Virus record (IMG/VR): IMGVR_UViG_3300035698_019127
Reading direction: 5' to 3' (one strand)
Source of the DNA: a virus
Length of the DNA: 10,660 nt
This document shows positions 1,419-1,450 of this stretch, piece after piece. The position numbers and the translations under genes are program-made. The notes under the pieces are model-generated. The model was not told where the DNA came from and searched no databases. It saw only the letters and a list, made by a program, of their open reading frames with translations. The first letter of the stretch is position 1, and every line of letters begins with the position of its first letter.

Positions 1419-1450
1419 AGGTTTCAACCCGTCCACTTCCGCGTAGTAGG
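1419..1450 (+). promoter_or_regulatory. Bipartite conserved intergenic motif, copy A: AGGTTTCAACC-N9-CCGCGTAGTAGG
   Basis: Begins 7 nt after the TAG stop of the membrane-protein gene. Ends 3 nt before GGAGG and the start of the M50 gene. An identical arrangement with the same spacing recurs at 8612-8643. Confidence 0.4.

Follow-up and report, generated by a model that had tools for sequence, protein, structure and literature searches.

A two-block intergenic element, probably a promoter class specific to one family of uncultivated phages

What kind of signal would a virus place, in nearly the same letters, in front of an M50 protease gene and again in front of rtcB? The question arises from the window, by which is meant the whole stretch of 10,660 nucleotides analysed here (IMG/VR record IMGVR_UViG_3300035698_019127), in which all genes lie on the plus strand. 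The original prediction described a bipartite element of 32 nt, present twice with identical spacing, and both copies are found with an exact match of sequence. Copy A, at 1419-1450 (+), reads AGGTTTCAACC CGTCCACTT CCGCGTAGTAGG; copy B, at 8612-8643 (+), reads AGGTTTCAACC ACACCGATC CCGCGTAGTAGG. Their position between a stop codon and an SD was also correctly described. Copy A begins 6 nt 3' of the TAG stop at 1410-1412, in the 51-nt gap upstream of the M50 gene, and ends 3 nt before the SD GGAGG (1454-1458), which is followed by the TTG at 1464. Copy B overlaps the TAG stop (8611-8613) of a pyruvoyl-dependent arginine decarboxylase gene and fills the 46-nt gap upstream of rtcB, its end lying 4 nt before the SD GAGGAG (8648-8653) that precedes the ATG at 8660.

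The genes around these copies are as follows. An HD-like protein and a small membrane protein (164-1412) are followed by the M50 protease (TTG 1464-2204), an HNH endonuclease (2197-2883) and tRNA-Met (2816-2892; CAT anticodon, CCA encoded), the only match in an Rfam scan of the window. The tRNA overlaps the final 68 nt of the HNH open reading frame, and a 243-nt gap without a called gene follows it. Next comes a full-length homologue of the major vault protein (MVP; 3136-5691; Pfam MVP_shoulder and Vault_3), which adjoins a gene for an RNA-ligase-like protein (5791-6402) and has rtcB nearby, all within a phage-like window. The MVP protein has more than 5,700 homologues, of which the named ones are mostly from Myxococcota, and it is 39-40% identical to open reading frames in 'huge phage' records of 462-735 kb; a search of IMG/VR for its relatives found none. 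A 457-aa protein (6456-7829; PHROG 29287, E 4e-117) has relatives among GenBank phages only in the jumbo phages Agrobacterium Atu_ph07 and Salicola SCTP-2, at 37-40% identity. The arginine decarboxylase (8035-8613; Pfam PvlArgDC, E 9e-23), here in a phage context, and RtcB (8660-10063), with small overlapping open reading frames behind it, complete the series. No DNA near-identical to the window is present among 50,697 GenBank phages.

Within the window the repeat stands well clear of chance. With up to three mismatches allowed, AGGTTTCAACC-N9-CCGCGTAGTAGG is matched twice, and none of 200 dinucleotide-preserving shuffles yields a match, which agrees with the claim that the repeat is far beyond chance. 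A degenerate half-site had also been reported directly after the MVP stop. The string AGGTTTCCA is indeed present at 5692-5700 (+), but its second half is absent, the expected place agreeing in only 3 of 10 bases. With no more than two mismatches the 11-mer is matched four times in the window against 2.6 expected, no excess over chance, and the half-site is probably a chance match that lies outside the motif system.

Comparison with other sequences showed that the functional unit is offset from the half-sites first proposed. IMG/VR has a single exact match to the 23 specified bases of AGGTTTCAACC-N9-CCGCGTAGTAGG, and the phage contig that carries it (98.7 kb; IMGVR_UViG_3300035698_006802) has no other DNA similarity to the window. 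Two further copies on that contig, with slightly altered edges, define a core, GGTTTCAA-N11-CCGCGTAGTA, and the full unit consists of this core followed by GGGGTG(A). In copy A the upstream, -35-like half GGTTTCAA, with its invariant core GTTTCA, occupies 1420-1427 (+); the 11-nt spacer, fixed in length, non-conserved in sequence and biased towards C, 1428-1438; the downstream, -10-like half CCGCGTAGTA, with its invariant core GCGTAGTA, 1439-1448; and the conserved GGGGTG, directly 3' of the downstream half, 1449-1454. In copy B the upstream half lies at 8613-8620 (+), its first G being the last base of the PvlArgDC stop TAG, the spacer at 8621-8631 and the downstream half at 8632-8641, followed by GGTCTA, the SD GAGGAG and the rtcB ATG at 8660.

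The core is found in IMG/VR in eight copies, seven on the 98.7-kb contig, all on one strand, and the eighth on another contig of that sample; a looser scan of IMG/VR adds two more copies on the 98.7-kb contig. Metagenome contigs of JGI and ENA contribute 31 stretches. The motif-bearing loci scanned, 133 kb in all, contain 40 distinct copies of the core that match at 18/18 positions and 21 with one to three mismatches, and shuffles of the same 133 kb contain no copy at three mismatches or fewer. Once loci L058 and L063 are added, the total reaches 68 distinct copies at up to three mismatches; besides the window and L063, their sources are two phage contigs of IMG/VR and some 30 contigs from metagenomes. 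The DNA that bears them is otherwise unrelated and comes from several samples, saline lakes being among the sites.

Cellular genomes are a different matter. One genome from each of 185,579 bacterial and archaeal species gave seven matches in a scan that demanded the exact 18 nt, and which looser host promoters of the same class would escape. These seven fall in unrelated, scattered taxa, are accompanied by neither GGGGTG nor an SD nor an ATG, and look like chance. The motif is also absent from the contigs that encode MVP relatives (L045-L047) and from Salicola phage SCTP-2 (L048, 29% GC). A literature search for the two sequence words returned only unrelated primers, and no paper in which this sequence is treated as a regulatory motif.

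The 68 copies reveal which parts of the element are held constant. The spacer is invariably 11 nt, C-rich and otherwise free in sequence, and the centres of the two blocks are always 20 bp apart. Variation is confined to the edges of the blocks, the cores GTTTCA and GCGTAGTA being invariant and 14 nt apart. The upstream block GGTTTCAA varies as GGTTTCAG/C/T or TGTTTCAA, and the downstream block CCGCGTAGTA as CT-, TC-, CG- or CA-GCGTAGTA, or rarely with GTAATA or GTAGTG. Neither block is a direct or an inverted repeat of the other. The downstream block contains an A+T patch, TAGTA, in surroundings of 57-60% G+C. Behind it, GGGGTG(A/G)A is conserved at about 1 bit per position, as seen in a position table of the 40 exact copies, and this conservation was not imposed by the search.

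These observations dispose of the explanation that the repeat arose by chance or from base composition, or is a scar of recombination without function. That the window itself holds only two copies is what such an explanation has to offer. The motif is not reproduced in any of the 200 shuffles, however, and its 68 copies sit in DNA that is otherwise unrelated and derived from several samples; moreover, bases that were not selected for, the GGGGTG, are conserved at about 1 bit per position, and the place before rtcB is conserved also. Chance origin is excluded, and the probability left to a functionless scar is negligible.

What, then, does the element mark? In the window and the related phage contigs it lies, with few exceptions, a short way 5' of a gene or block of genes on its own strand, and every copy has the orientation of the next gene. 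Among the exact copies, 37 of 40 are followed by an SD and a start codon, with the end of the motif 12-35 nt before the start (median near 19); an SD and start codon on the same strand are found behind 53 of 62 copies. In about two thirds of cases a long upstream open reading frame stops 0-30 nt 5' of the motif, and in a few it terminates at the motif's own TAG. The density of copies reaches one per 600 bp.

Individual loci show that the element follows the gene and its strand. In L006 a copy at 5464-5492 (-) precedes by 22 nt a lone minus-strand gene that is flanked by plus-strand RNR and RecD2 genes. In L058, copies at 8159 (-) and 7707 (-) serve one gene each of a two-gene minus-strand cassette, which lies between terminase and portal genes on one side and a 1358-aa gene on the other, all on the plus strand. 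L012 and L028 have seven to eight copies in about 5 kb, and the strand of the motif flips exactly where that of the genes flips. L012 also has an array of about 14 palindromes, GTTGACG-N3-CGTCAAC (2580-3000), with motif copies pointing away from it on either side; its appearance is that of an origin of replication or of a set of binding sites for partition or for a regulator. The same locus has one copy about 100 nt before its open reading frame and another inside that frame in antisense orientation. The nine copies of the 98.7-kb contig share one strand, and the genes for terminase, portal, RNR and RecD2 are on the other, a bias which suggests that the genes with the motif form a distinct temporal or functional class.

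Contig L063, also of phage origin, encodes an RtcB with 68% identity to that of the window. Most of its genes overlap stop-to-start and have no motif; copies are present only at intergenic gaps, and one lies directly 5' of rtcB, with which a series of about 16 overlapping genes begins. That no copy in this contig stands anywhere but in front of such a run agrees with the view of the copies as dividers of a long operon into modules. At 3408-3623 of L063 two tandem copies precede rtcB, with about 160 nt free of open reading frames between them that fold with a z of -2.2 relative to shuffles. A scan of this non-coding stretch with Rfam matched no family; by its position and folding the stretch may be a small RNA beside rtcB.

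Targets of the element are not confined to proteins. In L009, whose sequence is also that of L022, a copy stands behind a tRNA array and is itself followed by no SD or ATG; a tmRNA begins 190 nt downstream. This tmRNA, at 326-664 (9797-10135 of L022, minus strand), matches Rfam RF00023 with 71.6 bits and E 1e-27; it lies downstream of seven tRNA genes and is not called by ARAGORN. As one copy precedes a tmRNA and another is antisense within an open reading frame, the element is not tied to translation. The tmRNA also indicates that the host is bacterial.

No RNA structure is seen in the motif: over 62 copies the folding z averages -0.05 when the 38-nt unit is taken and -0.25 when 70 nt are taken. 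Nor is a terminator found upstream: the 52 nt on the 5' side have a mean z of -0.17, and a run of four or more T occurs in 2 of 64 copies. What remains is a real, nearly invariant sequence, strand-locked to genes and at the heads of transcription units.

Taken together, two asymmetric blocks at a fixed distance, the lack of RNA structure, the strict link between orientation and gene, the position at the heads of units that include non-coding ones, and the A+T patch make it probable that the element represents a promoter class restricted to a single family of uncultivated tailed phages, apparently lytic, whose hosts are bacteria. Of the functions originally put forward, that of a phage-specific promoter is thus the one favoured by the unit-head position, the strand-lock, the absence of RNA structure and the fixed two-block spacing. 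The blocks lie on one strand with the same spacing in 68 copies and can be read as GTTTCA-N14-GCGTAG or as TTTCAA-N16-TAGTAG. Co-oriented copies stand upstream of units in L006, L058, L012 and L063, among them units beyond the reach of read-through; since no upstream read-through reaches the opposite-strand cassettes and divergent units, a transcript must start there. The pattern of variation also appears promoter-like, in that the flanks of the blocks vary whilst GTTTCA and GCGTAGTA are fixed, and relatives carry a shifted consensus. Most likely, only the sequence is new here, the kind of element being familiar.

It is from sequence that we infer initiation by the element, the position of the start point and the kind of factor that recognises it. 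In the proposed mechanism, an RNA polymerase holoenzyme or specificity factor would contact GGTTTCAA and, exactly 11 bp further on, CCGCGTAGTA in double-stranded DNA. The A+T patch TAGTA would be the melting region, and transcription would start in or just past GGGGTG(A), some 1-8 nt beyond GTAGTA. The resulting mRNA would have a very short leader that carries the SD. Copy A would then give rise to a transcript of the M50 protease, HNH and tRNA-Met genes, and copy B to one of rtcB and the overlapping genes behind it.

Promoters of reduced form may also be present in the window. The string G[CG]GTA[AG]T occurs five times, always on the plus strand, and four of the five are in intergenic gaps 23-36 nt before start codons, two of these being copies A and B; the fifth occurrence is in coding sequence. 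The other two intergenic sites, both tentative, are GGGTAAT at 3100-3106 (+), 36 nt before the MVP-like gene (ATG 3136) and without a recognisable upstream half, and GGGTAGT at 8005-8011 (+), 30 nt before the PvlArgDC gene (ATG 8035). On what is thin evidence, these may be promoters that have the downstream block only. The best housekeeping-type match in the window, TTGATA-18-TATATT with a TG, is at 10528-10557, in an A+T-rich gap after the last open reading frame; it may hint at a second promoter class, a single consensus match being weak evidence.

It has also to be considered that the element acts in RNA, as a sequence-specific processing site or as a translation or stability signal, a phage or host protein binding or cutting a read-through transcript at GCGUAGUA/GGGG. 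The outcome would be a separate mRNA for each gene, with a 5' hairpin displaying the SD. The closeness of the motif to start codons (12-35 nt) is in keeping with such a role, as is the precedent of the SAS and ESAS repeats, found at translation starts in Cluster K and Cluster EF phages, and so is the folding of the leader. In copy A a hairpin spans 1449-1464, where GGGGTG (1449-1454) pairs with CACCC(U) (1459-1464) and the SD GGAGG lies in or beside the loop (MFE -9.2 kcal/mol, z -3.4). More generally, the leader, taken from GGGGTG up to the start codon, forms more stable folds than its shuffles do, with a mean z of -1.46 and 47% of values below -1.5, and its stem shows compensating changes (GGGAU/AUUCC, CAGG/CCUG).

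Yet hairpins with the SD in the loop are present at genes of the window that have no motif, at 6428-6453 (GGGCCC...GGGCCC, ATG 6456) and 8014-8033 (GGGTCTC...GAGACCT, ATG 8035). These two share the string TCTCACAGGAGA, and the design recurs, with compensating changes, at many related loci. Because such hairpins precede window genes without the motif, the hairpin is taken here to belong to the gene starts of these phages in general and to lie outside the promoter. The remaining evidence likewise weighs against an RNA-level signal: the motif itself, over 29-38 nt, is unstructured; 11 free bases between two blocks would be unusual for recognition of single-stranded RNA; the monocistronic opposite-strand cassettes and the divergent units have no upstream transcript to process; and copies stand before a tmRNA and antisense within an open reading frame. 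For these reasons, namely the lack of RNA structure, the cassette and divergent heads and the tmRNA and antisense copies, RNA processing or antitermination, which had been among the first candidates, is disfavoured, and action of the element in RNA is considered unlikely. The pairing of GGGGTG, with its compensating changes, nevertheless places it under two constraints, part of the element working at the RNA level as well, which counts against a pure promoter; if transcription started at +7 from TAGTAG, the GGGGTG stem would be dropped from the primary transcript.

As a further alternative to the promoter, a regulator of the phage might bind the element, which would then be an operator or a 'stoperator'. 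Stoperators are asymmetric 13-bp repressor sites of Cluster A mycobacteriophages that block elongation through intergenic gaps, and the present element resembles them as an asymmetric, orientation-locked and nearly invariant intergenic repeat with many copies per genome. Pfam searches do not encourage this comparison: no integrase or repressor family is among the matches listed, and there is no sign of a temperate lifestyle. No recognisable prophage-type copies were found in one genome for each of the 185,579 species. The suggestion of a dimeric regulator fares badly, as the halves are neither direct nor inverted repeats and so lack the symmetry for a dimer. The fixed 20-bp distance between centres, the A+T patch and the unit-head position suit a promoter better. 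A regulator site by itself is therefore very unlikely, though such a site could overlap a promoter.

If the element is a promoter, it should have a reader, and sequence searches for one have had the following results. No gene for a sigma-70-family factor or RNA polymerase is among the Pfam matches listed for about 270 open reading frames of the motif loci. Searches by phmmer with E. coli FliA, RpoS and RpoE against 1,520 open stretches of at least 70 aa in 189 kb returned nothing at E<=10. PHROGs and PDB sequence searches with the large unknown proteins gave no sigma factor or polymerase. No RNA_pol family that would indicate a single-subunit (T7-type) polymerase is among the Pfam matches listed for these partial contigs. 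The searches covered parts of the long contigs, for example 44.5 of the 98.7 kb of one.

Relatives of rtcB offer a view of how the system may have changed. In L061 and L064, whose RtcB proteins are 75% and 78% identical, a diverged motif occupies the same place before rtcB, reading GGTTTAGA-N12-CGGCGTAGGG in L061 and GGTTTCGG ... GCGGTAGAGGGG in L064 (about 150-203). L061 also has a second site of its own type, GTTTAG-N15-GCGTAT-AGGG; its sites, at 9955-10000 and 16240-16286, give the shifted consensus GTTTAG-N15-GCGTAG/T-GGGG. When five upstream regions are aligned, the invariant columns of the element are G.TT, GTAG, GG and two C's of the spacer. Conservation of place with change of letters suggests that the motif and its reader have diverged between lineages. 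A bolder form of the promoter reading is that the specificity system is an unrecognised one, a phage factor or polymerase without detectable similarity to sigma-70, shared by large uncultivated phages with RNA-repair and ribonucleoprotein genes, and whose recognition sequence would co-evolve between lineages (GTTTCA-N14-GCGTAGTA against GTTTAG-N15-GCGTAG/T). This is advanced tentatively, as an unlikely possibility.

The phages in question carry an unusual set of RNA-repair and ribonucleoprotein genes, comprising RtcB, RNA ligase, the MVP homologue, Ro60, tmRNA and tRNAs; the Ro60/TROVE protein is encoded at one of the motif-bearing loci. Among named relatives, the best ones of both the MVP and the RtcB protein of the window come from Myxococcota. 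For a phage family without a cultured member, the motif provides a precise and searchable marker of transcription units. It could be used to delimit operons, to pick out genes with a start signal of their own and to link scattered metagenome contigs to a phage group or a host, and, as a short DNA probe, to fish for the protein that recognises it. As it stands, the element is a signal of the kind expected in a phage; its importance would rise if the recognising protein proved to be other than a standard sigma factor.

How does it compare with known systems? Sets of phage-specific promoters include those used by the RNA polymerases of T7, T3 and SP6 and by the SPO1 sigma factors gp28 and gp33/34. 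Like these, the element is present in many near-identical copies per genome, on the coding strand, in short gaps before genes and in a form unlike the host consensus, and the TA/GGG junction together with the leader hairpin recall the T7 phi10 promoter. A T7-type promoter is, however, one contiguous block from about -17 to +6. The 11-nt free spacer splits the blocks of the motif, whose upstream block would fall at about -29 to -22, and a promoter of T7 type is unlikely.

The spacing and half-sites were at first held not to fit the sigma70 -35/-10 geometry. This has not stood: a distance between hexamers of 16-18 nt, or of 12-15 in the sigma-B type, would be compatible with it; GTTTCA-N14-GCGTAG has the spacing of sigma-B and SigF promoters, and TTTCAA-N16-TAGTAG fits the ordinary 16-17 nt and, followed by a GGG discriminator, is a possible ordinary -35/-10 reading of the motif. 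Assignment to housekeeping sigma-70 (TTGACA-17-TATAAT) was rejected, the best reading by hand matching 3/6 and 3/6 with G as the last base of the -10, where such a promoter calls for 4/6 or more in each hexamer with A2 and T6 in the -10, and a consensus scan reporting neither copy. An ECF-sigma reading (AAC ... CGTA) was rejected also, with a spacing of 13 nt instead of 16-17 and an AAC that is not conserved (position 9 varies). Mimicry of a tRNA T-arm by GGTTTCAAaCC was set aside, as a stem of only 2 bp is possible and the upstream flank is unconserved, as was an archaeal TATA-box, given that a related contig encodes tmRNA, a bacterial trait. Sigma-54, sigma-28, the T4 MotA box and lambda nut boxA do not fit.

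The closest geometry is that of the group 3 sigma factors sigma-B and SigF of Bacillus, Streptomyces and Mycobacterium. In B. subtilis sigma-B promoters read GTTTAA-N12-14-GGGWAW, with the first three G of the -10 almost invariant (PMC8346170), and in M. smegmatis SigF promoters read GTTT-N14-19-GGGTA, mostly with N15-16 (PMC4694148). The motif shares with them the GTTT of the upstream block, the G-GTA of the downstream block, 14 nt between hexamers (or GTTT-N16-G.GTA) and an often short distance to start codons. On the -35 side the class requires GTTT(A/N)(A/N), and GTTTCA is invariant here, with GTTTAG in relatives, whose GTTTAG-N15-GCGTAT matches the B. subtilis sigma-B consensus at 5/6 and 5/6. 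The -10 side differs. Instead of GGGTAT or GGGWAW, all 40 exact copies have GCGTAG, with C at position 2, and so do, among 21 listed variants, all those with a recognisable GCGTA (two weak candidates with four mismatches, in L020 and L013, lack the block). Unlike these promoters, the motif extends to GCGTAGTA-GGGGTG, and its copies are far less variable than cellular promoters. The geometry thus suggests a sigma-70-family factor of sigma-B/SigF type, a promoter class of which the motif is not a canonical member.

Two kinds of repeat found in phages resemble the element, the first as a cassette and the second in its distribution. The PeSLs of T4-like phages are cassettes of a stem-loop terminator and a sigma-70 early promoter (PMC2839356, PMC4122927). 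Like them, the motif is a conserved cassette that flanks small variable open reading frames and recurs in unrelated sequence, and, as with PeSLs, a role as a recombination point is equally possible; unlike them, it has no upstream hairpin or T-run, and its boxes are not of sigma-70 consensus. The SAS of Cluster K mycobacteriophages and the ESAS of Cluster EF Microbacterium phages are start-associated repeats of unproven function, SAS being 13 bp that include the SD and lie 3-7 bp from the start codon, and ESAS a 17-bp inverted repeat (PMC3203893, PMC7302621). Both, like the motif, are repeats in one asymmetric orientation before many non-structural genes and are absent from host genomes. The density of the motif and its tight distance from start codons also recall the mycobacteriophage start-associated sequences, a likeness that counts against a promoter. 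The motif, however, lies upstream of the SD, at 12-35 nt (up to 100-190), is not an inverted repeat and has non-coding targets as well. By mechanism, the closest known systems are the near-identical promoter sets of phages; by geometry, the closest is the sigma-B/SigF class.
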